Notes under the pieces: model-generated
The model's database searches: none
Seen by the model: only the letters and a program-made list of their open reading frames with translations
Told to the model about the DNA's origin: nothing
Part shown: in pieces, positions 9,585 to 48,364 of the stretch
Position numbering within the stretch: position 1 is the first letter of the stretch
Layout: every line of letters begins with the position of its first letter
NCBI GenBank assembly: GCA_036381125.1
Contig: DASVDK010000059.1
Span: 1-53,183, forward strand
Reading direction: 5' to 3'
DNA length: 53,183 bases
Source of the DNA: Thermodesulfobacteriota bacterium
Lineage (GTDB): Bacteria > DASVDK01
Position numbers and translations under genes: made by a program

Positions 9585-10099
9585 TCGCCTCCCTCGCCGG
9601 CGCCCGCGAGGCCGAGCCGTTCGCGGATGGCGGCGCTCGCGCGCAGGAGGATGGCGCGCTCGTTCTCGTAGGTGAGCGCATCCACCGCGTCGCCGAGGGC
9701 GAACCAGCGGACCTCCTCGGCCTCCCGGTCGTGGTCCTCCATCCGCCCCTCCCGGAAGCGGAGGAGGAAGAAGTGGACGCTCTTGTGGTAGCGGACCCGC
9801 TCCTGCCGGCCGTAGTACCAGTACTGGATGGTGCCGAGCTTGGCCTCGACGTCGCCCAAGAGCCCCGTCTCCTCCAGGACCTCCCGGCGAGCCGTCTCCT
9901 CCAGGCTCTCGTTCGGCTCGACGCCCCCCTTGGGCAGACACCAGACGCGCCCGCCGCCGCGGCCGGTGTAGGCGATCAGCGCCACCTCCGCCCCACCCTC
10001 CGGCGTCGCGCGGTAGATCACGCCCCCCGACGAGACCTGCGTGGCGGTCGGCGCCTTCCTCTTCGAGCTGTCGGAACCACGCGCCTTGCGCCCTGGCAT
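9581..10099 (-). CDS. NUDIX hydrolase (Ap4A hydrolase/MutT1-like)
   Basis: Nudix box GGVEPNESLEETARREVLEETGL preceded by WCLPKG. Confidence 0.92.
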   Translation of the reverse strand: MPGRKARGSDSSKRKAPTATQVSSGGVIYRATPEGGAEVALIAYTGRGGGRVWCLPKGGVEPNESLEETARREVLEETGLLGDVEAKLGTIQYWYYGRQERVRYHKSVHFFLLRFREGRMEDHDREAEEVRWFALGDAVDALTYENERAILLRASAAIRERLGLAGAGEGGE

Positions 10100-10124
10100 C
10101 CGCCCCTGATCTCCCTGCCGCTGG

Positions 10125-10913
10125 TCATCGTCCGGTGAACTTCGCGGCGCGCTTCTCGAGGAACGCGGCCGTCCCCTCGCGCATGTCCTCGGTCCCGCAG
10201 AGCGTGCCGAAGAGCCGCGCCTCCAGCGCCAACCCCTCGTCGAGGCTCATCGAGAGGCCCTCGTGTACCGCCTCGATGGCCGCCCGGAGCGCGAGCGGCG
10301 GTTTGCCGCCGACCAGCTCGCGGGCCCAGGCCACCGCCGCGCCGCGCGCCTCGCCCGGCTCGACGACGCGGTTGACGAGGCCGAGCGCGGCCGCCTCGTC
10401 GGCCGTGACCATGGCGCCCGTGAGGATCAGCTCCATGGCCTTTCCCTCACCGACGAGCCGGGCGAGACGCTGGCTGCCCCCGTATCCGGGGATGATACCG
10501 AGATTCACCTCGGGTTGCCCCAGGCGGGCGTTGCGCGCCGCGACACGCAGGTGGCACGCCATCGCGAGCTCGCAGCCGCCGCCGAGCGCGAAGCCGCCGA
10601 TGGCCGCGATCACCGGCTTGCCCGCGCGCTCCATCAGCCGGGTGAGCGCCTGGCCCCGCTCGGCCAGGGCCCGGCCCGCGGCCGGATCGAGGCCGCGGAT
10701 CTCGGCGATGTCGGCCCCGGCGACGAAGGCCTTGTCGCCCGCGCCGGTGAGGACCGCCGCGCCGATCGACGCGTCGTCCCTGACGCGCGTGAAGGCGTCG
10801 GTCAGCTCCGCGATGGTCGCCGCGTTCAGCGCGTTCAGCTTCTGCGGCCGATTCACGGTGACGACGGCGACGCGGTCGTCGATCTCGAAGAGGAGGTTCT
10901 CGTAGGCGCTCAC
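10125..10913 (-). CDS. Enoyl-CoA hydratase/crotonase
   Basis: AFVAGADI, ALGGGCELAMAC and GQPEVNLGIIPGYGG with both catalytic Glu. Confidence 0.93.
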   Translation of the reverse strand: MSAYENLLFEIDDRVAVVTVNRPQKLNALNAATIAELTDAFTRVRDDASIGAAVLTGAGDKAFVAGADIAEIRGLDPAAGRALAERGQALTRLMERAGKPVIAAIGGFALGGGCELAMACHLRVAARNARLGQPEVNLGIIPGYGGSQRLARLVGEGKAMELILTGAMVTADEAAALGLVNRVVEPGEARGAAVAWARELVGGKPPLALRAAIEAVHEGLSMSLDEGLALEARLFGTLCGTEDMREGTAAFLEKRAAKFTGR

Positions 10914-35529: not shown

Positions 35530-36726
35530 CTAGAGCCCGAGCCACTCCGGCTTGCGCGGCACCTCGCCCTCGTGCTCGAGCACGACCTTGCCGTTCCTGA
35601 CGATGTAGAGGAACGAGCGGGTCGTCGGCCGGTGGTCCTCGGCGGTGTACGTGATCGGCGGCGTGAGGCCGCCGGTGTCGAAGCCCCGCAGCGTCTCGAG
35701 CGCCTTCTTGACGCCCGGCCCGTTGAGGTCGTCGCCGGCCCGCCTGAGCGCCTCGGCCCAGACCGTCACGTAGGCCCAGCCGCGCACGTAGAGCGCGTCG
35801 GGGGCGAGCTGCGGCGGGTTGGCCTTGTGGAAGGCGAGGATCTCCTTCATCCCCGGCACGTCCGCCCCGTAGAGGACGTTCGGCAGCATCCCGACGACCC
35901 CTTCCGAGGCCTCCTTCGCCACCTCGGGGAGCTTCTCGCTGTAGCCGTACGGGTTCGAGCCGAACCGCGTGCGAAGGCCGAGCTTCTGGGCGTCCTTGAG
36001 GATCTGGGCGACCCAGGTGGTCGTCGTGTTGATGTACGCCCAGTCGGGGTCCTTCTGCTTCATGTTCAGGAGCTGGGAGGTCGAGTCCTGGAAGGACGAC
36101 GGGACGACCTGCTCGTCCACGAGATCGACCCCGATCTCCTTCGCGTACCGCCGCCCGGCCTCGATCGGCGCCCGGCCGTAGCCGTTGTCGGCATAGACGA
36201 AGGCGATGCGCGCCTTGCGGCCCGACGGCGAGTGCGCCTTGGCGTAGTCCATGAAGATGCGGAGGTTGTCGGAGTACGAGGCGCCGACGAAGAAGTTGTA
36301 GGGCGTCTTCTTCGGATCGGTCAGGTGCCCCGAGAAGGAGGCGGAGATGTACGGGATGCGGTCGTCGTTCACCGACTTCACGAGCGCCTCGGTGTCGCCG
36401 GTCCCCCACCCGTTGATCATGACGACGTCCTGGCCGGTGAACTGCTTGTAGGCGGCCACGGCCTGCGGGATCTTGTAGCCGTAGTCGACGGCGGTGAGGT
36501 CGATGCGCCGCCCGTTCACGCCGCCCCGCTCGTTCACGATCTTCACGTGATCGATGACGCCCTGGGCGAAGGGCTTGCCGACCTCCGAGGTGACGCCCGT
36601 CAGGTCGAAGAGGCCGCCGACCTTGATGGGCGCCTTGCCCTGTCCGTGCGCCCGGTGCGGCGTGAGCCCGCTCGCCGCGACCAGGGCCCCGCCCACCACC
36701 ACGAACCGCCTGCGCGTGAGTCCCAT
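35530..36726 (-). CDS. LivK-like ABC substrate-binding protein (operon B), Tat-type signal
   Basis: N-terminal LTRRRFVV; IKVG.LFDLTG, GGVNGR, DYGYK, GWGTGDT. Confidence 0.9.
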   Translation of the reverse strand: MGLTRRRFVVVGGALVAASGLTPHRAHGQGKAPIKVGGLFDLTGVTSEVGKPFAQGVIDHVKIVNERGGVNGRRIDLTAVDYGYKIPQAVAAYKQFTGQDVVMINGWGTGDTEALVKSVNDDRIPYISASFSGHLTDPKKTPYNFFVGASYSDNLRIFMDYAKAHSPSGRKARIAFVYADNGYGRAPIEAGRRYAKEIGVDLVDEQVVPSSFQDSTSQLLNMKQKDPDWAYINTTTTWVAQILKDAQKLGLRTRFGSNPYGYSEKLPEVAKEASEGVVGMLPNVLYGADVPGMKEILAFHKANPPQLAPDALYVRGWAYVTVWAEALRRAGDDLNGPGVKKALETLRGFDTGGLTPPITYTAEDHRPTTRSFLYIVRNGKVVLEHEGEVPRKPEWLGL

Positions 36727-36735
36727 GAGTGCCTC

Positions 36736-37785
36736 CTAGTACGAGAAGGGCCAGAGCTTCCAGTAGGCCTTGATCGTGCGCCAGCGTGCGGCCATGCCGT
36801 CCGGCTCGAAGACGAGGAAGAAGATGATGAGGAGGCCGAAGACCGCCTCCCGCAGGCTGACGATCAGGCCGATCAGGGCCGGAAAGCTTCCCGACAGGGC
36901 CGTGGCGACGATCCGGAGCAGGTCGGGCACGAGCGTCATGAAGGCGGCGCCGAGCACCGAGCCCAGGACGCTGCCGAGACCGCCGATGATGATCATGGCG
37001 AGGTAGTCGATCGCGACCGTGATCGGGAAGTTCTCCGGGGTGATGATCCCGGCCTGGTGGGCGAGGTGCGCCCCCGCCACGCCGGCGTAGAACGACGAGA
37101 CGCCGAAGGCGAGCAGCTTGTACCGGAAGAGCGGGATGCCCATGACCTCGGCGGAGATGTCCCTGTCCCGGATCGCCACGAAGGCCCGCCCGACGCGCGT
37201 CCGGAAGAGGTTGCGCGCGAAGAGGACCGCGACCACGGCGATCACGAGGATCAGGTAGAAGACCTTCGCGGCCGAGTCGAACTCGAAGCCGAAGAGGGTC
37301 GCCGTGTCGACGACGATCCCGTCGGTCCCGCCCGTTACCGACCGCCACCGGATCACGACGAACTCGATGATGAAGTGCGCCGCGAGGGTCGCCATGGCGA
37401 GGTAGAGGCCCTTGAGGCGCAGGGACGGGATGCCGAAGACCATGCCGACGGCCGCCGCGGCGAGGCCGGCGCCCGGGATGGTGACCACGACGGGCAGCCC
37501 GAGCGCCGTGAGCCTGGCGCCGGTGTAGGCGCCCACCGCGAGGAAGCCGGCGTGGCCGAGCGAGATCTGCCCGGCGAAGCCGGTCAGGATGTTGAGCCCC
37601 ACCGCGCCGATCACGGCGATGCCGATGCGGCTCATGAGGTCGATCTGGTAGGACGAGGCGGCGAGCGGGGCGAGCGCCGCGAGCAGCAGGAAGAGCGCGC
37701 AGGCCACCCTGCCGACCGGGCTCGCGAAGATGCGGCTGTCGGACTCGTAGCTGACCCGGAAGTCCCCGCAGCGGGCGGTCGTCAT
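36736..37785 (-). CDS. LivM-like ABC permease (operon B)
   Basis: GLNILTGFAGQISLGHAGF, GLYLAMATLA, AIRD, GGLGS. Confidence 0.92.
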   Translation of the reverse strand: MTTARCGDFRVSYESDSRIFASPVGRVACALFLLLAALAPLAASSYQIDLMSRIGIAVIGAVGLNILTGFAGQISLGHAGFLAVGAYTGARLTALGLPVVVTIPGAGLAAAAVGMVFGIPSLRLKGLYLAMATLAAHFIIEFVVIRWRSVTGGTDGIVVDTATLFGFEFDSAAKVFYLILVIAVVAVLFARNLFRTRVGRAFVAIRDRDISAEVMGIPLFRYKLLAFGVSSFYAGVAGAHLAHQAGIITPENFPITVAIDYLAMIIIGGLGSVLGSVLGAAFMTLVPDLLRIVATALSGSFPALIGLIVSLREAVFGLLIIFFLVFEPDGMAARWRTIKAYWKLWPFSY

Positions 37786-37872
37786 GACCTCGCTCCGTTG
37801 CCCCGGCCCCCTCGGCGTCGCCGGCCGGGACCCCTGCGAAGCCTGCTCGATCGAGGTCGACGCATGACTCTC

Positions 37873-38760
37873 CTAGACCCTCTCGATCTCTTCCGTGCCG
37901 AAGAGCCCGTACGGACGGACCATGAGGATCAGGATGAGCAGCACGAAGGGGGCGACCTCCTTGGCGCCGCCGCCCACGTACGGGTCGAGGTAGCCGCCGG
38001 CCAGGTTCTCGAGGACGCCGACGAGGAGGCCGCCGACGAAGGCGCCGGCGAGGCTGTCGAGCCCGCCGAGGATCACCACCGGGATGACCTTGAGCCCGAT
38101 GAACGCGAGCGAGCCGTCGACGCCGCCCCGCATGTTGCCGAGGAAGATGCCGCCGACGACCGAGACCATGGCGGCGATCGCCCAGGCGAGGGCGAACATC
38201 CGCTTCACGCTGATGCCCATGGAGAGCGCCACCTGCTGGTCGAACGCCGTCGCCCGCATGGCGACGCCGGCCTTCGAGTACTTGAAGAAGAGCGACAGGA
38301 GCCCCATCAGGACGAGCACCGCCACGAAGGAGCCGGCGTACGCCGGCGTGACGGCCACGCCGCCGAGGCGGAACGGCTCGCCGGTGAAGAACTCCGGGAA
38401 GGCCCGGATGTCGGTGCCGTAGACCGACTGAACGGCGGCGCGCAGCACCGACGCGAGGCCGAGCGTCACCATGACCACCGAGAGGATCGGCTCGCCGATC
38501 ATCGGCCGCAGGATCACCCGCTCGACCAGGAGGGCGAGGAGCACGGCGAAGACGAGCGTGCCGAGGACCGCCGCCGGATACGGGAACGCCAGCCACACGA
38601 GGAACGAGAGGCACACGTAGGCCCCCACCATCAGGAACTCGCCCTGGGCGAAGTTCACCACCCGGGAGGCCTTGAAGATGAGGACGAAACCCATGGCCAC
38701 GAGCGCGTACACGCTGCCGACGACGACGCCCGTCACGACGAGGTTCAGGAAGAAGGCCAT
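37873..38760 (-). CDS. LivH-like ABC permease (operon B)
   Basis: YALVAMGFVLIF...VNFAQG, GVAMRATA, GGLDS, RPYGLFG; ATG at 38760. Confidence 0.92.
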   Translation of the reverse strand: MAFFLNLVVTGVVVGSVYALVAMGFVLIFKASRVVNFAQGEFLMVGAYVCLSFLVWLAFPYPAAVLGTLVFAVLLALLVERVILRPMIGEPILSVVMVTLGLASVLRAAVQSVYGTDIRAFPEFFTGEPFRLGGVAVTPAYAGSFVAVLVLMGLLSLFFKYSKAGVAMRATAFDQQVALSMGISVKRMFALAWAIAAMVSVVGGIFLGNMRGGVDGSLAFIGLKVIPVVILGGLDSLAGAFVGGLLVGVLENLAGGYLDPYVGGGAKEVAPFVLLILILMVRPYGLFGTEEIERV

Positions 38761-40679
38761 CGGATCTCCCGGACGGCGAGCCGCGTCCGAATGGTGGCCT
38801 GGCGGCCGTCCTGGTACTTGATCGTCGCCTCGACGGGGATCTCCGGTCCCGAGCCGTAGAGCCCCTCCACCACCGGCGCGTACCGATCCTCCACGAACCG
38901 CCGGCGGATCTTCCGTGTCCGGGTCAGCTCGTCGTCGTCGGCGTCGAGTTCCTTGTAGAGGAGGACGAACTTCCTGAGACGCGCCGCCTCGGGGAGCGAC
39001 TCGTTCACGCGCCGCACCTCGGCCTCGACGAGGTCGTACACCTCCGGCTTGGCGGCGAGGTCGGTGTAGGTCGTGTAGGAGATGTGCCGGCGCTCGGCCC
39101 ACTTCCCCACGATCCCCATGTCGATGTTGATCATGGCGGCGAGGTAGGGGCGGCCCGAGCCGATCACCACCGCTTCCTTCACGTACGGGCTGAACTTGAG
39201 CTTGTTCTCGATGAACTGCGGGGAGAAGGTCGTCCCGTCCGCGAGCCGCATGACGTCCTTCACGCGGTCGATCACGACGAGCTGGCCGTCCTCGGTGAAG
39301 TAGCCGGCGTCGCCGGAGTGGAGCCACCCGTCCCGCAGCGTCTCGGCGGTCGCCTCCGGGTCCTTGTAGTAGCCGTTGAAAACCGAGTCGCTGCGCGAGA
39401 GGATCTCGCCCGTCTCGCCGATGCGCACCTCGGTCCCCGGGATCGGCCGCCCCACGGTGTCGAACCGGACCTCCCCGTCCCGGTGGATGCAGGAGATCCC
39501 GGCGATCTCCGTCTGCCCGTAGATCTGCTTGAGGTTGACGCCGAGGCCGTGGAAGAACCGGAACGTGTCGGGGCCGAGCGCCGCGCCGCCGGTGGTGGCG
39601 CTGCGGATCCGGCTGAGGCCGAGACGGTCCTTGAGGGCCCGGAAGCACGCCAGCTCGGCCAGCGCGTACCGGATCCTCAGGCCGGCCGGGATGGACCGCC
39701 GGGCGAACCGCGCGTCCGCCATCGCGTAGCCGATCGGCAGCGCCCAGTCGAAGATCCGTCGCTTGAGCCAGGTGGCGTCCATCGCCTTCACGCGCACCGT
39801 GGCCGCCAGGTTCTCCCAGATGCGGGGGGGGGAGAACATCACGTGGGGACCGATCTCGCGCAGGTCGGCCTGCACGGTGGCCGGCGACTCGGGGAAGTTC
39901 ACCGTGAAGCCTACGGCGAGCGACGACGATGCCGCCATCATCTGCTCGCCGATCCAGGCGAGCGGGAGGAACGAGAGGAACTCGTCGCTCTCGTACTTGG
40001 GGTCGACCTCCATGAGCCGCAGCGCCATGTTGAGGAGGTTGCGGTGCGTCAGCATGGAGCCCTTCGGCAAGCCGGTGGTCCCGGACGTGTAGCAGAGGAT
40101 GGCGAGGTCGTCGGGCCGGCCGGCCGCGACGTTCGTCTCGAAGAGGCCGGCGTGGGCCGCGCCGTGCGCCCGCCCCAACGCCTCGATCTCCTCGAAGGCG
40201 GCGAGCCCGTCGTCCCGGTAATGCCGCAGGCCGCGCGGGTCGGTGTAGACGATGGCACGGACCCCGGGGGTCTTCGCGCGGACCTCGAGGAGCTTGTCGA
40301 CCTGCTCCTGGTCCTCGGCCACGACCACCGTGGCGTCGCAGTGGCCGATGACGTAGACGACCTCGGCGAGCGTCGAGTCCTGGTAGACGCCGACCGACAC
40401 GCCTCCCGCCGCCTGGGCGGCCAGCTCCGCGTAGAGCCACTCCGGCCGGTTGTCGCCGATGATCGCCACCGTGCCGCCCCTCGCGAGCCCGAGCGCGACG
40501 AGCCCGAGCGAGAAGTCGCGCACCCGGCGGAGGTACCCGGCCCAGGTCACCTCCTGCCAGATCCCGAACTCCTTCTCGCGCAGCGCCACCCGCCGGTCGC
40601 CGAAGCGCTCGGCGTTGCGCACGAGGAGTTGCGGGAGCGTGAAGCTCCGGAGGTCGACCTGCCCGTTGCCGGCGCTCAC
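38745..40679 (-). CDS. Long-chain acyl-CoA synthetase-like AMP-binding protein (operon B)
   Basis: YTSGTTGLPKG, YGQTE, GWLHSGDAG, IDRVKD, ELTRTRKIRR. Confidence 0.93.
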   Translation of the reverse strand: MSAGNGQVDLRSFTLPQLLVRNAERFGDRRVALREKEFGIWQEVTWAGYLRRVRDFSLGLVALGLARGGTVAIIGDNRPEWLYAELAAQAAGGVSVGVYQDSTLAEVVYVIGHCDATVVVAEDQEQVDKLLEVRAKTPGVRAIVYTDPRGLRHYRDDGLAAFEEIEALGRAHGAAHAGLFETNVAAGRPDDLAILCYTSGTTGLPKGSMLTHRNLLNMALRLMEVDPKYESDEFLSFLPLAWIGEQMMAASSSLAVGFTVNFPESPATVQADLREIGPHVMFSPPRIWENLAATVRVKAMDATWLKRRIFDWALPIGYAMADARFARRSIPAGLRIRYALAELACFRALKDRLGLSRIRSATTGGAALGPDTFRFFHGLGVNLKQIYGQTEIAGISCIHRDGEVRFDTVGRPIPGTEVRIGETGEILSRSDSVFNGYYKDPEATAETLRDGWLHSGDAGYFTEDGQLVVIDRVKDVMRLADGTTFSPQFIENKLKFSPYVKEAVVIGSGRPYLAAMINIDMGIVGKWAERRHISYTTYTDLAAKPEVYDLVEAEVRRVNESLPEAARLRKFVLLYKELDADDDELTRTRKIRRRFVEDRYAPVVEGLYGSGPEIPVEATIKYQDGRQATIRTRLAVREIRWPSS

Positions 40680-40803
40680 GGCGCCGCACCTCCGTCAACG
40701 GCTCGCGGCCGCCGTCCGCTCCGGCCGTGGCAAGCCCGGCCTCCGCTCCCCCGGGGCTCCGCCCCGGGCCCACTCCCGGGGGCCGCTCGCCTCACGGTGC
40801 GGC

Positions 40804-41607
40804 TCACGCCGTCGCCTCCTGCTCGGCGCGGCGGAGCATCTCGTCCGACTGTCCGAGGTACGCGTGGATGACGTGGGGGTCGCGCTGCACCTCGGCCGGC
40901 GTCCCCTCGGCGATCTTCTTGCCGAAGTCGAGCACGCAGACGCGGTGCGAGAGGTCCATGACGACCCCCATGTCGTGCTCGATCATGACGACCGTGACCC
41001 CCCGCTCCTCGTTCACGTCGAGGATGAAACGGGCCATGTCCTCGGTTTCCTCGAGGTTCATGCCGGCCATCGGCTCGTCGAGCAGCAGGAGCGACGGCTC
41101 GAGCGCGAGCGCGCGAGCGAGTTCCACCCGCTTCTGGAGGCCGTACGGGAGCGTACCGACCACCTGGTGGCGGATCGCCTCGATCTCGAGGAAGTCGATG
41201 ATCTCCTCGACGACCTTCCGGTGGCGCACCTCCTCCCGGCGCGCAGGTCCCCAGTAGAGACCGCCCGCGAGGAGGCCGGTCCCCATGTGGACGTGGCGGC
41301 CGATCATCAGGTTGTCGAGGACGGTCATCCCGCGGAACAGGGCAAGGTTCTGGAACGTGCGGGCGATGCCGAGGCGGGCGATGCGGTGCGGTGCGAGCCG
41401 GGTGAGGTCGCGGCCCTCGAAGGCGAGCCGGCCCGGCTTCGGGTGGTAGAGACCGCTCACGCAGTTGAGGACGCTCGTCTTGCCGGCCCCGTTGGGGCCG
41501 ATGATGGCGAAGATCTCCCCCCTGCGCACCTCGAAGGAGACCCCCTCGAGGGCCCGCACGCCGCCGAACGTCAGGTACAGGTCCCTGGCTGAGAGCTGCG
41601 CCGCCAT
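40804..41607 (-). CDS. LivG-like ABC ATP-binding protein (operon B)
   Basis: FGGVRAL, GPNGAGKTS, LPYG, LLDEPMAG, IEHD, AYLG; start 41607 or 41637. Confidence 0.92.
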   Translation of the reverse strand: MAAQLSARDLYLTFGGVRALEGVSFEVRRGEIFAIIGPNGAGKTSVLNCVSGLYHPKPGRLAFEGRDLTRLAPHRIARLGIARTFQNLALFRGMTVLDNLMIGRHVHMGTGLLAGGLYWGPARREEVRHRKVVEEIIDFLEIEAIRHQVVGTLPYGLQKRVELARALALEPSLLLLDEPMAGMNLEETEDMARFILDVNEERGVTVVMIEHDMGVVMDLSHRVCVLDFGKKIAEGTPAEVQRDPHVIHAYLGQSDEMLRRAEQEATA

Positions 41608-41981
41608 CTCGCCACGCGCCACGCCATTCCCCCACATCGGTTGGCGGCGGCCCGCCGGCACCCGGGCTACGGACGGAATCGACTGGAATTCTAGCGTGTC
41701 GACAGGCGCTTTCCCATCTAGAACAGAGTTACACCTCTTGCCGACCCCGCTGTCCGGGCCCGACGGTCGCACCGCAATTCGTCAGCCCGGGTGCCCGCCG
41801 GCGTCATGTGTGCGGCGGCGCGCCGGTGCGCGCCATTTGCCGGGCCGATCCCCGGCCGTCGGGCCGCGGTCGTGCCGCTCGGGGCAAGACTCCGCCGCGG
41901 TTCGGGAATCCGGCCGCGAGGCCGGTGCGCCGCCTCACGCCGCCGATCGATCGGAATCGGCACGAGGGGCCGAAGTACGCC

Positions 41982-41998
41982 TGGCACATCTGTTGCTC
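41982..41998 (+). promoter_or_regulatory. sigma54 -24/-12 promoter upstream of the major pilin-like gene
   Basis: TGGCACATCTGTTGCT fits TGGCAC-N5-TTGCW exactly. Confidence 0.85.
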
Positions 41999-42104
41999 CG
42001 CCGACGCGGGCAAAGCGCCAGCCCGGTAACCGACCGGTCGGCGACGGGGCCAGCCCCGTAGATGCACGACGCACCCTGCTGACGCTCGAAAGGAGCTGGA
42101 CCAT

Positions 42105-42629
42105 ATGCGTAGCTCGACGCGCTTCACGACCGGCCTCGCCGTCGTCGCGGCGGCGGTCCTCGGCCTCGCGACGCTGCCGTCGACGGTCGAGGCGGCCACG
42201 GCCAACCAGAACCTCACGATCAACGCCGTCGTCAACGACCGCGCGACGCTCACCCTGAGCACCGCGACCATCAACTTCCCGGACTCCGACCCCGAGACCG
42301 TGCTGTCCATCGCGGCGAGCGAGAACCCGGTCACCGTCAGCGCTCGGGTCCGTACGGGCGCGACCAGCACGCCGACCCTGACGGTCCAGGCGAACGGCGA
42401 CCTCTCCAACGGCACCGACACGATCCCCATCTCGAACGTCACCTGGACGGCGTCGGGCTCCCCGTTCGTCGCCGGGACGATGAACGCCACGGTGGCTCAG
42501 AGCGCGGCGACGTTCGGCACCGGCTCGGGGAGCTACACGGGGACCTTCAGCTACTTCCTCGCGAACGACTGGGCGTACAACGTCGGCACCTACACCGCGA
42601 CGGCGACCTACACGCTGACCGCCCCGTAG
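42105..42629 (+). CDS. Secreted beta-rich pilin-like protein (putative major subunit)
   Basis: AAAGGAG RBS; signal peptide ending VEA; Thr/Ala/Ser-rich, Cys-free; N-terminal NLTINAVV and C-terminal GTYTATATYTL strands. Confidence 0.75.
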   Translation: MRSSTRFTTGLAVVAAAVLGLATLPSTVEAATANQNLTINAVVNDRATLTLSTATINFPDSDPETVLSIAASENPVTVSARVRTGATSTPTLTVQANGDLSNGTDTIPISNVTWTASGSPFVAGTMNATVAQSAATFGTGSGSYTGTFSYFLANDWAYNVGTYTATATYTLTAP

Positions 42630-42657
42630 CCGTCGCAACGCCATCGACCTTGCCCCT

Positions 42658-42701
42658 CGAGGCCCGGCTCCCGCGCACACGGGAGCCGGGCCTCGCCTTT
42701 T
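42658..42701 (+). terminator. Intrinsic terminator-like hairpin after the major pilin-like gene
   Basis: Perfect 16-bp stem CGAGGCCCGGCTCCCG/CGGGAGCCGGGCCTCG, 6-nt loop, then CCTTTT. Confidence 0.75.
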
Positions 42702-42961
42702 CGGGGCCCGGCGGCGCGCCCGCGTTGCCGTCGTCACGGAGCGCCCGGCCCGGAGGGAGGGCGCGACGAACGTCACCCGATGACGCGTCCGGTCACCGGA
42801 TGGGAGCGTCCTCTCGGCGGCAGTCGCCATCGCGACACGGGCCGGCACGCCCGATCCCGCCCCCCTCTGCAACCTCTCGAATCGCCGAACGAAATCGCGC
42901 CGGGGCCCCGCGGGCGCCAGCCGGGGCTGCCGCCCGCCCACCTGCCTATACGCTCGCCTCG

Positions 42962-42978
42962 TGGCACATCTGTTGCTC
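42962..42978 (+). promoter_or_regulatory. Second sigma54 promoter, identical 17-mer
   Basis: TGGCACATCTGTTGCTC identical to 41982-41998. Confidence 0.85.
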
Positions 42979-43081
42979 GTTCTCCAGCCGAGCGTGCCCC
43001 TGGCCCGGGGAGTGCCCCGGCGGCGGCGGGGCCGGGCTGTTTCCGGAACGCGTCTCGACGACGCCTGGAGGAGCTGGCACC

Positions 43082-43591
43082 GTGGAACGCTGGCAGCACC
43101 CGCCCCGAACCCGCCGCGCCCTTCGCGTTGCGATCCTCGGTCTCCTCGCCGGGCTCGCGCTCCTCGCCGGCCCGCGGACGGCCGAGGCGCAGGCCCTCCT
43201 CCTGGACCTCGGCGCGCCCTCGATCACGTTCCCAGACGCGAACCCCGACCTCCAGCCGACGATCGCCTCGACGCCGGTGACGATCCGGATCGGGATCGCG
43301 GTCATCGGCGGCCGCGGGCGGCCGTGGCGCCTCACGATCGTCGCCAACGACCACCTGCGGGCCGGCGCGAGCGTCATCGACGCCGGCAACATCTCGTGGA
43401 CCTCGTCGAGGACGAACCAGGGCTGGTTCGCCGGCGGGACGCTGGCGGTGGCCGCACCGCAGACGATGGCGCAGGGCACCGGCAGCCTCGCCATCACGTC
43501 CTCGGACATCGCCTTCCGGCTGCAGAACCGGTGGACCTACAACCCCGGCTCCTACACGACCACGGCGACCCTGACGCTCAGCTCGCCCTGA
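43082..43591 (+). CDS. Secreted pilin-like paralogue (putative minor/tip subunit)
   Basis: GGAGGAG RBS before GTG; signal peptide ending AEA/AQA; aligns by eye to 42105-42629 (ITFPDANPD, LTIVAN..L, NISWT, LQNRWTYNPGSYTTTATLTL). Confidence 0.72.
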   Translation: MERWQHPPRTRRALRVAILGLLAGLALLAGPRTAEAQALLLDLGAPSITFPDANPDLQPTIASTPVTIRIGIAVIGGRGRPWRLTIVANDHLRAGASVIDAGNISWTSSRTNQGWFAGGTLAVAAPQTMAQGTGSLAITSSDIAFRLQNRWTYNPGSYTTTATLTLSSP

Positions 43592-43611
43592 CCGACGGAG
43601 GCCTCGCACCC

Positions 43612-44424
43612 ATGCGCGCAACAGGATCCTTCGTCCTCGGCGCCGCCCTCGCGCTCGCGACCGCGGCCCTCCCCCTGCCGGCGGACGCCGCCGGTCCGTC
43701 GTTCAGCCTCGCCCCGATCCGCTTCGACATCGAGGCGACGCCCGGCGAGCCGTACACCGACGCCCTCGAGGTGCACAACACGGCGCGCGAGACGGCACGC
43801 ATCAAGGTCTACACGGAGGACTGGCGGCTCGAGCGCGACGGCGCGATCACGTTCCTCAAGCGCGGCACCGGCCCCCGATCGGCCTCGCCCTGGATCCGCG
43901 TGAACCCGTCGGAGTTCGATCTGCCGCCCCTGTCGGTCGCCGACGTCCGCTTCACGGTGACGGTGCCCAGGGGCGCGCCGGCCGGCGGCTACCGGGCGGC
44001 CATCGTCGTCGAGCAGGTGCCCAGGCCGACGCCGGGAGAGGAGCCGAGGCGCGCGGTGGCGATCCGGGCGCGGATCGCCTCGGTCGTCTACGTGAGGGTG
44101 GGCGCCCGGGAGCCGGCCGCCGAGCTCGCCGGCGTGACGTACGCGCGGCTCGCCAACGGCGTGCGGGCGCTCGTCCTCGCGGTGCGCAACACCGGCGACG
44201 TCCACTTCCGCACGAACGGCAAGGTCCGCCTCGCCGATCCGGCGACCGGTCGCCGGGTGCACACGATCCCGATCCCCGACGCGCCGGTGCTGCCCCGGTC
44301 CGAGCGCGACCTGCTCGTGCACCTCCCGGAGGACGCCCGACCCGGGACCTACGCGGTCCGCGCCGAGCTGGACGTCGGCGGCGCCGACCTGTACGTGCAC
44401 GAGGGCCAGGTCCGGGTCGACTAG
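43612..44424 (+). CDS. Periplasmic pilus chaperone-like protein (PapD/EcpB/DUF916-like, two Ig-like domains)
   Basis: GGAGG RBS; signal peptide ending ADA; SLAPIRF....PG......VHN, WIRVNPSEFDL......VRFTVTVP...GGYRAAIVVE, second domain VRNTGDVHFR...PVLP...PGTY. Confidence 0.7.
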   Translation: MRATGSFVLGAALALATAALPLPADAAGPSFSLAPIRFDIEATPGEPYTDALEVHNTARETARIKVYTEDWRLERDGAITFLKRGTGPRSASPWIRVNPSEFDLPPLSVADVRFTVTVPRGAPAGGYRAAIVVEQVPRPTPGEEPRRAVAIRARIASVVYVRVGAREPAAELAGVTYARLANGVRALVLAVRNTGDVHFRTNGKVRLADPATGRRVHTIPIPDAPVLPRSERDLLVHLPEDARPGTYAVRAELDVGGADLYVHEGQVRVD

Positions 44425-44455
44425 CGGACCTGCGGCGCGGCAGCGGCGGTGATGC

Positions 44456-47227
44456 GTGGCGAGCCACGGACCTGACCGAGCGGCCGGCGACGGCTCCGGG
44501 CGCCGGGGAGCGCTGCGTCCCGCGCGGCGGCTCCTCCCGCTCCTGCTCCTCGGCGCCGTCGTCGCCGCCCCGCGCGCCCGCGCCGAGCCGCTCCCCGTCG
44601 GGGACGCGACGCTCGTCTACCAGATCCGCTCCTCGCACACCGACGACCCGGCGTTCGCGCCGCAGACCTGGACCGAGCAGGACGTCGGCCTCTTCCTCGC
44701 CCAGGAGGTCCCCAACTACGGCGTCATCCGCGCCGAGACGCACTGGTTCGACGCGGTCGGCGAATCGGGCGACGTCGGCTGGACGCAGCTTGCGCTGACC
44801 GACCTCGAGCTTCCGGCCTTCGCCGCCTCCCTCGCGTTCGGCGACGCCGGCATCGACGCCCGGCTCCTGCCCCGACGCCTCCTCATCCTGACCGATCCCG
44901 GGTTCGACCTCGAAGGGGCGCGGCTCGCGCTCCGGGGCCCGACCACCGAGGTCGCCCTCTTCGGCGGCCGCGCCGTCGACCGCGTCGGCAGCCTCTCGAC
45001 CGGCGTGAACCGCCTGGACCAGGACCTGGTCGGCCTCACCCTGCGCGGGACGACCGGACCGGTCGCGTGGAGCACGCTCTACGTGCACGGCGACGGCGGC
45101 GGCCCCGGTGCCGGAAGCCGCGTGCCGGCGAGGACCGACACGATGGGCGTCGGCGTCGAGGTCCCCATCGCCGGCCCGCTCGCCCTGCTCGGCGAGGTGC
45201 GCTACGCGACGAGGCCGAACGCCGAGGGCGCGGCCGGCCGCAGCAACGGCCTCTCGTACGCGGTCGGCCCGCTGATCGAGCGGCGCGGGCTCCGTTTCGA
45301 GGCGACCGCCTTCTCGCTCGACCCCGCGTACCTGCCCATTCAGGGATCCGACCCGATCGCCGACCGCCGCGGGCTCTACACGGGGCTGAGCTGGGACCCC
45401 TGGGGGGCCTTCGGGCTCTTCGGGAGCGCGCTGCGCAGCCGCAACAACCTGGCCGACGACCCCTCGCTCCTGACCATCGAGACGACGCAGGTCATGCTCG
45501 GCGCCCACGCGTTCCTCCCGCTGCGCTGGCCGATCGGGCTCCTGGTGCGCGGCGAGTCGACGACGCTCGAGTCCACGGGCGCGGGCCCGAGCGCCCTCGA
45601 CTCGCGGACGAGGGCCCTCTACGGCGAGGCGTCCCAGGTGATCGGCAACTGGCGGCCGGTCGCGCGCGCCCGCTGGAGCCGCCTCGACGACGCCGCCTCC
45701 GACCAGGCGTCGGACACGGTCGACGTGACGGCCGAGCTCTGGTGGCAGGTGACCAGGCGCGCCCGCCTCTGGAGCGCGCTCGGGTGGAACGACCTGTCGG
45801 GGACGTCCGGCGTCACCGATCAGACCACCGTCCTCGCGAGGCTCGGCGGCGAGCAGCGCGTGACGGCCAACCTGTTCCTCCGCGGCGAGGCGGAGGTCGT
45901 GCAGACCGACCATGCCGGCACCCGCACGGTCCGTACCGGAGCGATCGCGAGCGTCGGATACCGCCACCGCTACTTCGACGCCTACCTCGACCTGCGCCGG
46001 AGCTGGACGACGGCCGAGACGACCGACGGCATCGCCGGCGAGACCACGACCACGCGTACGGACGACGGCCTCTACCTCCGCGTGACCGTTCCCATGCGCT
46101 GGGGCCGGCCGACGCCGCCGCCGCTCGGCCGCCAGGCGGCTGCCGACGACGACGGGTGGGGCACGATCGAGGGGCGCGTCTTCGTCGACGACGACGGCGA
46201 CGGCGTGCTCGACCCGGGCGAGCCGGGCGTGGGCGGGCTCTCGGTCATCCTGGACGGCCTGCCCGGGACCGTCGTCCCGACCGACGAGGAGGGACGCTTC
46301 GCCTATCCCCGGGTCGCCTCCGGGCTCCACTCCGTCCGGGTCATCGTGCGCAGGCTGCCGGCCGAGTTCGACCTCGTGAGCCCTCAACTCGTCGAGGTGA
46401 CGATCGCACGCCGCGCGACGGCACACGTCTCGTTCGCCGCCCAGCGGCTCGGCCGGATCGCCGGCCGGGTCACGCGCCTCCAGGTCGACGCCGGCGGCGA
46501 ACCGCGGCGCCTCGCCGACGCGGGCTCGATCCCGCTCTACCTCAGACGGGGCGACGACATCTGGCAGACGTTCACGGACGACGAGGGGTACTACGCCTTC
46601 GACATGGTTCGGGGCGGGGAGTACGAGCTGTTCGTCGACCCGGCCGCCCTGCCGCCCCCGGTCGCCGTGGAGCCCGGCTCGCGTACGGTGCGACTCGGCG
46701 CCGGCGAGGTGGTCGAGGGGGTCGACTTCACGATCCGCCAGCCGTCCCGCCGCGACATTCGCAACGGCGGCGGCACGCACGGCAGCCGGGCCGCCCCGCC
46801 TGCCGCGGCGCCGGCCGTCCTCGCGGGCGACGCCAGGCCCGCGCAGACCCGCGACTGCGTCGGCGATGCCCCCGAGCCCGGCATGGTGGGCGTCTTCTAC
46901 TTCGCGACCGACTCGTCGGACCTCCGGGAGCTGGAGCGGCTGCGGCCGGCGCTGTCACGCTGGGCGGAGTGGCTGCGGCGCGACCCCGCACGGGAAGTCC
47001 TGATCGAGGGACACACCGACCGGCGCGCCGACGATCCGTACAACTTCGGGCTCGCGGCCCGCCGCGCCTACGCGGTCTACCGCGCGCTCGCCGAGGCCGG
47101 CGCGCCCGAGGCGCGGCTGCAGCTCGTCCCCGAGGGGCCGGACCTCCTCTGCGACCCGGCCGACACCCCGGAGGCCCACGCCGCCAACCGCCGCGTCCTC
47201 GTGACGGTCAGCGTTGCGGGGCGCTGA
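44456..47227 (+). CDS. Usher-like outer-membrane beta-barrel protein with two SdrD-B/carboxypeptidase-regulatory-like domains and a C-terminal OmpA domain
   Basis: Signal peptide ending ARA; ~520 aa of amphipathic beta strands; GTIEGRVFVDDDGDGVLDPGEPG...TDEEGRF; GRIAGRV...TDDEGYYAF; FYFATDS...IEGHTD...YNFGLAARRA...NRRV. Confidence 0.72.
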   Translation: MASHGPDRAAGDGSGRRGALRPARRLLPLLLLGAVVAAPRARAEPLPVGDATLVYQIRSSHTDDPAFAPQTWTEQDVGLFLAQEVPNYGVIRAETHWFDAVGESGDVGWTQLALTDLELPAFAASLAFGDAGIDARLLPRRLLILTDPGFDLEGARLALRGPTTEVALFGGRAVDRVGSLSTGVNRLDQDLVGLTLRGTTGPVAWSTLYVHGDGGGPGAGSRVPARTDTMGVGVEVPIAGPLALLGEVRYATRPNAEGAAGRSNGLSYAVGPLIERRGLRFEATAFSLDPAYLPIQGSDPIADRRGLYTGLSWDPWGAFGLFGSALRSRNNLADDPSLLTIETTQVMLGAHAFLPLRWPIGLLVRGESTTLESTGAGPSALDSRTRALYGEASQVIGNWRPVARARWSRLDDAASDQASDTVDVTAELWWQVTRRARLWSALGWNDLSGTSGVTDQTTVLARLGGEQRVTANLFLRGEAEVVQTDHAGTRTVRTGAIASVGYRHRYFDAYLDLRRSWTTAETTDGIAGETTTTRTDDGLYLRVTVPMRWGRPTPPPLGRQAAADDDGWGTIEGRVFVDDDGDGVLDPGEPGVGGLSVILDGLPGTVVPTDEEGRFAYPRVASGLHSVRVIVRRLPAEFDLVSPQLVEVTIARRATAHVSFAAQRLGRIAGRVTRLQVDAGGEPRRLADAGSIPLYLRRGDDIWQTFTDDEGYYAFDMVRGGEYELFVDPAALPPPVAVEPGSRTVRLGAGEVVEGVDFTIRQPSRRDIRNGGGTHGSRAAPPAAAPAVLAGDARPAQTRDCVGDAPEPGMVGVFYFATDSSDLRELERLRPALSRWAEWLRRDPAREVLIEGHTDRRADDPYNFGLAARRAYAVYRALAEAGAPEARLQLVPEGPDLLCDPADTPEAHAANRRVLVTVSVAGR

Positions 47228-47318
47228 CGCAGGCGTCCCGTGCGTGACGACGCAGCGCCGAGGCGGATCCCGGCGGGGTGACGCGCCGCGCGGGCCGGCC
47301 GCACCCGTGGCACACAAG

Positions 47319-47394
47319 GGGGTCAGACCCCGACGTTCTCCGGTCTGGAAAATGGAAAGACCTGACCCCCTGGAAAATGGAAAGACCTGACCCC
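47319..47394. repeat. REP-like element, inverted copy of 11877-11951
   Basis: GGGGTCAGACCCC palindrome (47319-47331) plus perfect tandem 25-mers CTGGAAAATGGAAAGACCTGACCCC (47345-47369, 47370-47394). Confidence 0.9.
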
Positions 47395-47413
47395 GCGCGG
47401 CGCCGTCCCCCTC

Positions 47414-48364
47414 TCAGTACCGCGGCTTGTAGTCGAAGTGGTGCGTGGCCTGGATGTAGCGGACGGTGCGCGACTGCGAGCGCATGACCACCGAATGGGT
47501 CGTCGCGCCGCCCGACACGAAGCGGACCCCCTTCAGGAAGTCGCCGTCGGTCACGCCGGTGGCGGCGAACATGACGTGCCCGCCGGCCAGTTCCTCGAGC
47601 TGGTAGACCTTGTTGATGTCGGTGATGCCCATGCGCTTCGCGCGCTCGATCTCGTCGTTGTTGCGCGGCACGAGGCGGCCCTGCATGTCGCCGCCGACGC
47701 AGCGGATCGCGGCCGCGGCGATGACCCCCTCGGGCGCGCCGCCGATGCCCATCAGCACGTCGACGCCGGTCGACTCGAAGCAGGTGGCGATGGCGGCCGA
47801 CACGTCGCCGTCGGGGATCAGCTTGATGCGGGCGCCGGTCGCGCGGATCTCCCGGATGAGCTGCTCGTGACGCGGCCGGTTGAGGACGACGACGGTCAGG
47901 TCCTCGACGTAGACGCGCAGCGCGTTGGCGATGGCCTTGAGGTTCTTCGCCGGCGGCGCCGTGATGTCGATGGCGCCCCGGGCGCGCGGCCCGACGGCGA
48001 TCTTCTCCATGTACGTATCGGGCGCGTGCAGGAAGCCGCCCTTCTCCGCCATCGCGATGACCGACAGCGCGTTCGGGCCGCCGGTGGCGGTGATGGTCGT
48101 CCCCTCGAGCGGATCGAGCGCGATGTCGATCTCGGGCCCCCCCGCGCCCACCTTCTCGCCGATGAAGAGCATCGGCGCCTCGTCGCGCTCCCCCTCGCCG
48201 ATCACGACCGTTCCGGCGATCCCCACCGAGTCGAAGGCGCGCCGCATCGCGTCGACCGCCGCCTGGTCGGCGGCCTTCTCGTCCCCCCGCCCCATGAGCC
48301 TGGCGGACGCCAGAGCCGCCGCCTCGGTCACGCGAACCGCCTCGAGTGCCAGGTTGCGATCCAT
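47414..48364 (-). CDS. glpX: Fructose-1,6-bisphosphatase class II
   Basis: VTEAAAL, VVIGEGERDEAPML, DPLEGT, YMEK, DGDV, GIGGAPEGV, FAATGVTDG. Confidence 0.97.
   Translation of the reverse strand: MDRNLALEAVRVTEAAALASARLMGRGDEKAADQAAVDAMRRAFDSVGIAGTVVIGEGERDEAPMLFIGEKVGAGGPEIDIALDPLEGTTITATGGPNALSVIAMAEKGGFLHAPDTYMEKIAVGPRARGAIDITAPPAKNLKAIANALRVYVEDLTVVVLNRPRHEQLIREIRATGARIKLIPDGDVSAAIATCFESTGVDVLMGIGGAPEGVIAAAAIRCVGGDMQGRLVPRNNDEIERAKRMGITDINKVYQLEELAGGHVMFAATGVTDGDFLKGVRFVSGGATTHSVVMRSQSRTVRYIQATHHFDYKPRY

Follow-up and report, generated by a model that had tools for sequence, protein, structure and literature searches.

A candidate donor-strand pilus locus pairing a DUF916/WxLIP-related chaperone with a predicted outer-membrane barrel in a Thermodesulfobacteriota genome

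The described systems closest to the locus reported here are the chaperone-usher (CU) pili (Fim/Pap, CFA/I and Csu/CupE), the Elr/WxL pilus of Enterococcus faecalis and the Pam pilus of candidate phyla radiation (CPR) bacteria. We analysed a stretch of 53,183 nucleotides (contig DASVDK010000059.1 of assembly GCA_036381125.1, forward strand; hereafter the window) from a Thermodesulfobacteriota bacterium, in which positions 42105-47227 encode two small secreted proteins (subunits 1 and 2), a two-domain chaperone-like protein and a large outer-membrane protein. This locus is a real, conserved operon. Judging from its sequence relatives and from structure models, we lean towards the view that it produces a fibre assembled by donor-strand exchange, with a soluble WxLIP-type chaperone, a wall-tethered, plug-less, usher-like barrel and control by sigma-54. 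An initial annotation, made from the sequence alone, had proposed a divergent, sigma-54-controlled fibre that follows chaperone-usher logic outside the described usher clades, and our analysis, taken element by element, supports that such a system may exist.

In the Elr system, ElrC and ElrD are WxL pilins and ElrE is a DUF916-DUF3324 chaperone. An October 2026 preprint reports, in the part of its text that is accessible, that WxL clusters encode pili built by strand exchange with a chaperone family that is not PapD, and that the WxL and CU chaperone families are unconnected at E<=1e-20 (bioRxiv 10.64898/2026.10.17.759780). The same part describes a survey of one proteome per genus across 4,698 genera, with components defined by Pfam, and reports the system in Bacillota only, with a small Actinomycetota satellite among the chaperones. 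Diderm relatives go unmentioned there, where the word 'diderm' has no occurrence, as they do in the accessible portions of Hassan et al. 2023 (PMC10599100) and of the 2022 WxL survey (PMC9772566). The Pam pilus, as far as its accessible description goes, consists of PamA/B pilins, PamC/D anchored chaperones and a PamT tip (PMC13278184).

Like the CU pili, our locus combines subunits, a two-domain periplasmic chaperone and a large protein, here modelled as a barrel with two beta-sandwiches behind it. Also like them, its subunit is predicted to have a pilin-type incomplete immunoglobulin (Ig) fold with an N-terminal extension, its chaperone is modelled with a strand running parallel to the last strand of the subunit, and a subunit that lacks a donor strand could serve as the tip. 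Unlike CU pili, however, the locus has no PapD_N, Usher, Fimbrial or SCPU match in Pfam, and all three CU components fail their sequence definitions. Its chaperone is instead related to DUF916/WxLIP, its barrel is predicted with 26 strands and without an N-domain or plug and carries an added OmpA domain, its subunits are without a disulfide, a two-domain adhesin is missing and its candidate promoters are of the sigma-54 type. The initial annotation had seen no canonical PapC motifs and, indeed, no locus protein matches Usher, PapD or Fimbrial at E<=1; the locus does not map cleanly onto a characterised CU family.

With the Elr system the locus shares a chaperone of the same sequence superfamily, a predicted chaperone donor strand in a similar place (residues 145-151 here, 141-152 in ElrE), predicted parallel complementation, and a candidate donor strand at the pilin N-terminus in which small residues alternate with hydrophobic ones, in so far as the accessible preprint text describes these (bioRxiv 10.64898/2026.10.17.759780). 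According to the same text, 96.7% of WxL chaperones have a C-terminal helix, whereas the chaperone here is predicted to be soluble. Unlike those of Elr, the subunits have neither a Pfam WxL domain nor two W-x-L motifs, there is no LPxTG/sortase component, a predicted outer-membrane barrel is present and the host is a diderm outside Bacillota. The Pam pilus resembles the locus, by description, in its chaperone-guided donor-strand logic outside the classical CU families and in a single-domain, donor-strand-less subunit proposed as tip (PamT there, subunit 2 here); unlike the locus, it is described in the accessible text as having membrane-anchored chaperones, two-domain pilins and no trans-envelope pore, and is reported as exclusive to CPR (PMC13278184).

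Two further systems are more distant. The TLP-1a/b pond-water fibrils (PDB 9IKJ/9IKK) differ from the locus, with 237 residues and 15-16% identity, a donor supplied by protomer n+4 and a closest predicted homologue that is Flavobacteriales-like, as stated in the accessible part of the CryoSeek report (PMC11494351); no sequence-level relation to TLP-1 was found, the subunit profile having no PDB match at E<=10. The Synechocystis slr1667/slr1668/slr0019 'novel CU system' was considered and set apart by its description as classical-type: in the text available, its chaperone is a PapD-like FGS protein and its usher shares 30% identity with FimD (bioRxiv 10.1101/130278). A preprint on cytochrome nanowires refers to CU systems no more than briefly. 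A full-text search, with most subscription journals and preprint supplements outside its reach, found no published pairing of a DUF916-type chaperone with an outer-membrane barrel. The locus would seem to be a sequence-orphan variant of chaperone-usher assembly for which no counterpart was found in print.

Subunits and chaperone

The open reading frames (ORFs) and the flanking strands agree with the initial description of four co-oriented secreted proteins set against the minus-strand flow of the region, and an ORF check returned the same coordinates for all four genes on the plus strand (42105-47227). Subunit 1 (42105..42629, +; 174 aa) is the putative major pilin. Subunit 2 (43082..43591, +) has 169 aa when read from a GTG at 43082, the ORF list placing its start at 42650. 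The chaperone-like gene (43612..44424, +) encodes a two-domain, putatively periplasmic protein of 270 aa, and the last gene (44456..47227, +) a usher-like outer-membrane protein of 923 aa. The intergenic gaps are 452, 20 and 31 nt, and the G+C content of the locus (72-76%) is like that of the remaining window. All four proteins have signal-peptide-like N-termini, as read by eye, and none contains an LP.[TSA]G motif, so that there is no LPxTG subunit. Several initial claims about the small proteins hold: they are paralogous (35% identity over 130 residues, E 2e-14), both have zero cysteines and hence no disulfide, and no two-domain adhesin occurs among the four genes. The 270-aa protein is likewise free of cysteine, and the large protein has two.

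A word-indexed search found 349 relatives of the subunits at E<=1e-3, all of them unnamed except for one UniRef label. That label, DUF4402 on the relative P0139, was dropped, as none of 28 family members, P0139 included, matches Pfam DUF4402 at E<=1. Nor does any of these 28 match Fimbrial, SCPU or WxL (PF13731) at the same threshold; no Pfam family was found for the 28 relatives or the two window proteins, no meaningful NCBIfam family for the latter, and no PDB sequence for the subunit profile at E<=10. The WRL motif that had been taken as a WxL hint did not stand up, occurring once in subunit 2, where its position is not kept across the family alignment, once in the chaperone and not at all in subunit 1; W-x-L motifs in general number zero in subunit 1 and one, at a non-conserved place, in subunit 2. 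In the Atlas, the nearest named neighbour of the subunit is a WxL cluster (0.94), and a structure match reaches a template-modelling (TM) score of 0.64 to a cluster with 22% WxL, both of which we treat as leads only.

Built from a 28-row alignment, the AlphaFold2 model of subunit 1 is confident for a beta core that spans residues 46-174, with pLDDT below 50 for residues 1-43. The resulting layout is a signal peptide to about residue 30, a donor-strand candidate at 31-44 (LTINAVV) and an incomplete Ig-like core at 46-174. The top Foldseek rows for this model are nearly all CU pilins (FimF, CfaB, the PapG pilin domain, FimG, FimA, PapA and CsuA/B; E 1.3e-3 to 4e-2). Across a wide structure comparison, donor-strand filament subunits account for 27 of the 50 best matches, and further fold matches include archaeal cannulae and threads, CS17/CS20, Fim, Pap, CupE, TasA, EcpA, AAF and SefD. 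In the monomer model, the extension at the mature N-terminus, some 14 residues long, stays unfolded. Its consensus among 120 relatives is A-[TS]-x-x-x-x-L-T-I-N-A-T-V, where L37 is kept in 115, A41 in 112, V43 in 111 and I39 in 97, with V at position 39 in 22. An alternating L-x-I-x-A-x-V extension would be the kind of pattern that donor strands have. Subunit 1 is thus modelled as an incomplete Ig fold that has a donor strand at its N-terminus; rather than a complete Ig domain without strand exchange, the outcome that would have spoken against the initial proposal, the prediction gives a pilin-type fold with a free N-terminal strand.

In subunit 2 precisely this N-terminal extension is missing, and the mature N-terminus reads QALLLDLG.... 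Judged by eye from an alignment that covers 17 loci, the window among them, the gene immediately upstream of the chaperone encodes an extension-less subunit in 13; in 3 more such a subunit is the first gene, and none was found in locus L021. Since a subunit that accepts a strand and donates none fits only at the distal end of a fibre, as holds for CU tip subunits, we consider subunit 2 a candidate for the tip or first-incorporated subunit.

For the chaperone, the word-indexed search gave 26 relatives only. A profile of 18 relatives, run against 1.84 billion cluster representatives, matched 24,010 of them at E<=1e-3, of which 14,412 remain at E<=1e-10 and still 1,665 at E<=1e-30; by these profile matches, the superfamily is very large. 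The best PDB sequence for the profile is EfmWxLIP1 of Enterococcus faecium (9i25_C, 9i1y_A; E 5e-4), and no PapD-type chaperone was among its PDB sequence matches at E<=10. The Pfam family WxLIP_PGBD (DUF916, PF06030) is matched by 11 of the 18 relatives at E<=0.1 and, at E<=1e-3, by 13 of 30 representatives sampled from the best 150; six of these 13 exceed the Pfam cut-off. DUF3324 (PF11797) is matched by one of the 18 (E 0.0069) and by two of the 30 at E<=1e-3, both below its cut-off. By contrast with WxLIP_PGBD, PapD_N (PF00345) finds no match in the window chaperone at E<=1, in the 18 relatives at E<=0.1 or in the 30 representatives at E<=1e-3. The window chaperone ends in ...HEGQVRVD and has no C-terminal hydrophobic tail; a transmembrane-like tail is present in only 9 of the best 150 representatives, and two distant relatives in the first alignment have a C-terminal hydrophobic tail (P0025 and P0026, the latter named Marmoricola). 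Because of this WxLIP kinship and the missing tail, the window chaperone is best described as a putative soluble member of the DUF916/WxLIP superfamily and not as a PapD, the kinship being one of superfamily, with the window's own copy below the Pfam cut-off. The WxL/DUF916 flavour sensed in the initial annotation finds support in the chaperone, whose only sequence kinship is to DUF916/WxLIP. Among the best 150 representatives, 73 (within P0154-P0299) exceed 330 aa, many having 500-590 aa and two matched stretches, which suggests tandem-duplicated chaperones; in L021 the chaperone ORF (9249-10718) is 489 aa long and matches by its C-terminal half.

These results bear on whether the locus simply belongs, as a very deep branch, to the classical or archaic CU superfamily, with a diverged PapD/CsuC chaperone and a true usher that has lost its N-domain and plug, in which case the DUF916 resemblance would be generic Ig-fold similarity only. 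We hold this to be unlikely. The structural comparisons fit it, in that the subunit fold matches CsuA/B, CfaE and Fim/Pap pilins, an Atlas structure search gives a TM score of 0.59 to an SCPU cluster and the twelve best Foldseek matches of the barrel protein are FimD/PapC, and among the 26 chaperone relatives are 3 to which the Joint Genome Institute (JGI) gives the name 'P pilus assembly chaperone PapD'. Sequence comparison speaks against it: the chaperone family leads to EfmWxLIP1 with no CU chaperone at E<=10, has six of 30 sampled relatives above the WxLIP_PGBD cut-off and none with PapD_N at the thresholds given above, all 28 subunit members are without a Fimbrial or SCPU match at E<=1, and Pfam Usher is absent from both the 923-aa protein and the genome.

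We then turn to the modelled complex of mature chaperone and mature subunit 1, predicted with a separate alignment for each partner and with three controls. The ipSAE values were 0.79, 0.79 and 0.78, compared to 0.00 for the best control; of 157 solved complexes 116 attain this mark, whereas of 215 mismatched pairs only 2 do. Contact agreement between runs was at least 97%, and partner pLDDT at least 88. The tightest contacts pair chaperone residues 145-151, the candidate donor strand VAIRARI (149-155 in the full protein), with subunit residues 165-171 in the same direction (145-165/166/167, 146-166, 147-167, 148-168, 149-169 and 151-171, chaperone first), and antiparallel contacts reach the first strand of the subunit (151-47/49 and 146-55). 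From these contact registers, the chaperone strand would lie between the first and last strands of the subunit, parallel to the last, which matches the topology given for CU pili and for ElrE-ElrD (bioRxiv 10.64898/2026.10.17.759780). Binding by donor-strand complementation is thereby predicted, and the pilin-chaperone modelling that the initial annotation had recommended agrees with strand insertion (ipSAE 0.79 against 0.00 in controls). Subunit residues 31-43 are outside the confident interface, so the extension of subunit 1 would remain free in the complex, and the near-invariant chaperone R33, which lies in the modelled interface, could hold the C-terminal carboxylate of the subunit.

The barrel protein and related loci

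The AlphaFold2 model of the 923-aa protein (19-row alignment; mean pLDDT 80, the N-terminal half mostly above 85) comprises a predicted 26-strand barrel (residues 49-549, nt 44600-46102, +), two beta-sandwich domains (568-664 and 666-763, nt 46157-46744, +), a disordered linker of about 40 residues (767-805, +) and an OmpA-type peptidoglycan-binding domain (811-920, nt 46886-47215, +), the last placed by both the model and Pfam. In this model the first barrel strand begins at residue 49, straight after the signal peptide, and only short loops, without a domain inserted among them, connect the 26 strands. Barrels of FimD and PapC have 24 strands. With an even number of strands, a barrel has its two ends on the periplasmic side, which would place all the C-terminal domains there too. 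Pfam finds no match in residues 1-560, SdrD_B at 572-630, CarboxypepD_reg at about 703 and OmpA (PF00691) at 815-912; the OmpA score of 52.9 bits, against a curated cut-off of 27.2, bears out the OmpA fusion proposed initially. Pfam Usher (PF00577) has no match at E<=1 in this protein and none in the 96%-complete genome, with an E. coli control positive.

Foldseek ranks 1-12 for this protein are all FimD/PapC (E 9.9e-20 to 9.5e-11, about 810-850 columns), in agreement with the large beta-barrel that the initial annotation had predicted. Rank 13 is SdrD (9.9e-10), which matches the beta-sandwich domains, and the best-ranked other barrels are MtrB (4.8e-9) and LptD (1.3e-8). What appears usher-like is the architecture, a very large barrel and then two periplasmic sandwiches. 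Atlas neighbours of the barrel are unannotated clusters only, commonest in Acidobacteriota, Thermodesulfobacteriota, Rifleibacteriota and Pseudomonadota.

Such a barrel might alternatively be a general export channel or porin for polysaccharide or matrix proteins, with the small proteins polymerising outside in the manner of TasA or curli and without usher-type catalysis. We judge this very improbable. The absence of a plug or N-domain from the model agrees with it, and so does an Atlas feature cluster named 'PEP-CTERM system-associated outer membrane protein' (0.94), although these Atlas feature matches have no Pfam family and matches of that kind are often due to chance. A general channel would, however, sit poorly with the linkage of the barrel gene to chaperone and subunit genes across phyla and with the periplasmic sandwich pair, present in the window protein and in all 14 further relatives; the predicted capping by the chaperone, moreover, would imply a hand-over in the periplasm.

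To place the locus among its relatives, we fetched 23 loci with a subunit alignment from species-representative genomes, all of them metagenome-assembled genomes (MAGs), and read their synteny from simple ORF calls and local hidden Markov models. They are labelled Terriglobia, Acidobacteriota, Vicinamibacterales, Armatimonadota, Thermodesulfobacteriota/Deltaproteobacteria, Desulfobaccia, Desulfarculales, NC10, 'Hebobacteria', Burkholderiales and, in one case, 'Bacillota'. A chaperone gene lies downstream of 2-6 subunit genes in 19 of the 23, and two of the four remaining loci (L008 and L018) end at a contig edge. In 13 loci the chaperone is followed by a large secreted protein with a phmmer match to that of the window. 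The synteny survey recommended at the outset thus finds the order subunits-chaperone-barrel recurring in MAGs labelled as many diderm phyla. The barrel profile found no match at E<=0.01 in L005-L009 and L023 (the Armatimonadota/Hebobacteria group), and what these loci share is the C-terminal domain pair alone; three of four large downstream proteins in this group consist of about 540 unassigned residues and two CarboxypepD_reg/SdrD_B domains. A scan of 14 further barrel relatives showed the two C-terminal sandwiches in every one. In some loci an extra subunit-like gene stands between chaperone and barrel or immediately follows the barrel, in certain cases in the opposite orientation (L013:10797-11369; L011:13106-13606, -; L015:12366-12863, -; L014:12916-13413).

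The relatives differ in the wall-binding module that the barrel carries. An OmpA module is present in the window, in L010 (11619-14597) and in P0150 and P0151, one or two LysM domains occur in the Terriglobia loci L001-L003 (at about 12.9-13.2, 15.9-16.1 and 13.3-13.5 kb, respectively), and an N-terminal AMIN domain is found in a Vicinamibacterales MAG (L020:4467-8231). The remaining relatives, of 750-930 aa, have no extra Pfam domain (L011, L013-L015, L017 and L021 among them). Because different peptidoglycan-binding modules appear to have been gained independently, tethering of the pore to the wall is likely to be useful. Classical ushers are not known to carry such wall-binding modules.

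The same modules could be taken to suggest a structural role in the envelope, and with it a static surface complex instead of a fibre, in which the Ig-like partner holds single-copy small proteins on a wall-tethered outer-membrane protein, for example for polymer binding or as a coat layer; WxL/csc clusters were first proposed to form such a complex. Up to 2026 the literature read WxL clusters in this way, as far as the accessible texts tell (PMC10599100; bioRxiv 10.64898/2026.10.17.759780), and the locus indeed has no adhesin domain; the WxL system, however, has since been reported as a pilus in the latter source. We find a static complex distinctly unlikely, since it would give no role to a conserved, exposed N-terminal strand that only one paralogue has and that polymerising needs; the related loci moreover have 2-6 subunit genes each, and the fold matches of the subunit are filament subunits.

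Promoters and genomic setting

Two identical sigma-54 -24/-12 boxes precede the subunit genes: P1, TGGCACATCTGTTGCT, at 41982..41997 (+), 123 nt before the start codon of subunit 1, and P2 at 42962..42977 (+), 120 nt before that of subunit 2. The sequence TGGCACATCTGTTGCT agrees with the full consensus (GG at -24 and GC at -12, TGGCAC-N5-TTGC) and has exactly two copies in the 53-kb window and none in 100 shuffles, and the two boxes form an exact 17-nt direct repeat. With an rpoN gene in the source genome (218.6 bits), the sigma-54 control claimed in the initial annotation is well founded in the boxes themselves, whose use as promoters we infer. Across the 23 related loci (601 kb, both strands), the strict pattern TGGCA[CT]-N5-[TA]TGC has seven copies, five of which lie within 300 nt upstream of a same-strand subunit ORF, in regions that account for no more than about 3.5% of the sequence. 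Since five of the seven strict copies precede subunit ORFs, sigma-54 control appears to be recurrent within the family without being universal (5 of 22 loci). A lax scan (8 of 10 positions) found matches about 1.8-fold denser upstream of subunit genes (10 in 20.8 kb of upstream regions, 71 in 271.7 kb elsewhere), and we base our reading on the strict pattern.

Between the two subunit genes, 29 nt after the stop codon of subunit 1, lies a GC-rich hairpin (42658..42695, +) with a perfect 16-bp stem followed by GCCTTTTCGG. Its arms are 100% complementary (-58.8 kcal/mol, z -3.9), and it is a candidate terminator or attenuator. A scan for consensus sigma-70 promoters and terminators over 41700-47500 returned 0 sites of both kinds, having missed this hairpin because only 4 T follow it. 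Subunit 1 may thus have its own abundant transcript, with subunit 2, chaperone and barrel forming a second operon. Both subunit genes have the same ribosome-binding context, GGAGCTGG(A/C)CC, and, because of this shared context and because P2 lies inside the longer ORF, the GTG at 43082 is most likely the real start of subunit 2.

Low-depth contigs from one RNA-Seq library of a compost metagenome cover 42951-43192 (P2, the leader and the start of subunit 2) with 0-2 differences, and a more diverged contig covers 43991-44246, within the chaperone gene. These contigs are too thin to speak for transcription or habitat; they begin ahead of the predicted start site, and carried-over DNA may be their source. 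Soil and sludge DNA runs hold near-identical pieces.

Both flanks of the locus are on the minus strand, with a Liv-type ABC transporter and an AMP-binding enzyme upstream and glpX, a thioesterase and homoserine dehydrogenase downstream. The upstream set (35530-41772, -) is that of a Liv-type branched-chain amino-acid transporter (binding protein, permeases and ATPase), within which the AMP-binding, acyl-CoA-ligase-like gene sits. The source genome is a MAG of 4.33 Mb, 96% complete, with a single copy of the locus. In the species-representative set, the phylum of the window has two genomes of one genus, and the subunit is present in both. With only these two genomes of the phylum in the set, the host lineage, of high G+C content (about 73%), is very sparsely sampled; the nearest protein relatives are labelled 'Thermodesulfobacteriota bacterium' in databases.

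Proposed assembly and its implications

Taking the donor-strand fibre as our preferred reading, assembly might proceed as follows, where the gene content, promoter boxes and sequence kinship are given and the further steps are predicted or inferred. An enhancer-binding protein would activate P1 and P2, whose boxes, like the hairpin, are present in the sequence. P1 would yield a short subunit 1 transcript ending at the hairpin, and P2 a transcript of subunit 2, chaperone and barrel. All four proteins would be exported by Sec, as their signal-peptide-like segments suggest by eye. In the periplasm, the chaperone is predicted to cap each subunit by placing VAIRARI between its first and last strands, and the chaperone-subunit complexes would dock on the barrel, probably on its two periplasmic beta-sandwiches, which occupy the position of the C-terminal domains of ushers. 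Subunit 2, with a groove and no donor strand, would enter first and become the tip; copies of subunit 1 would follow, each displacing a chaperone by means of its L37-T-I-N-A-T-V43 strand, and the growing fibre would be threaded outward through the 26-strand barrel, as the anatomy of the proteins and the known CU and Elr mechanisms lead us to expect. The OmpA domain and its linker of about 40 residues would tie the barrel to peptidoglycan, so that a pull on the fibre would pass to the wall. The barrel would thereby take the place of sortase anchoring in Elr, and the chaperone would be a soluble relative of the anchored DUF916/WxLIP chaperones.

Several points weigh against this fibre. All structural statements are predictions, and the good score of the chaperone-subunit complex may reflect the model's memory of solved chaperone-pilin complexes. 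The window chaperone itself reaches 17.3 bits against WxLIP_PGBD, below the cut-off of 27.3. Neither an usher N-terminal domain nor a plug insert is seen in the barrel model, and the fibre scheme does not account for the gating of a 26-strand pore or for the recruitment of complexes to it. A barrel-only FimD structure (3ohn) scores 4.1e-9, about the same as MtrB at 4.8e-9, so the usher-specific Foldseek signal may stem mainly from domain order. Finally, no gene for an enhancer-binding protein was found on the contig of the locus, with about 20 strong Sigma54_activat matches elsewhere in the genome.

Beyond the locus itself, we tentatively raise the idea, more doubtful than the fibre as such, of a third, diderm branch of chaperone-guided donor-strand pili, defined by a soluble DUF916/WxLIP chaperone and a plug-less, peptidoglycan-tethered 26-strand usher. 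If this is true, the DUF916 superfamily would be an assembly module common to WxL (Elr) pili and to many unannotated environmental fibres of diderms, bridging two assembly routes that the literature treats as unrelated. The locus unites a chaperone of Gram-positive type, in soluble form, with an outer-membrane pore of Gram-negative type and, if confirmed, would be a candidate evolutionary link between the Gram-negative CU and the Gram-positive WxL systems. Confirmation would also mean that an usher can work without the N-terminal and plug domains thought central to usher function, and that anchoring of pili to the wall recurs in diderms by way of swappable OmpA, LysM and AMIN modules. It would give names to 'hypothetical' proteins by the thousand, and orphan fibrils from the environment that cryo-electron microscopy has shown may become easier to assign.

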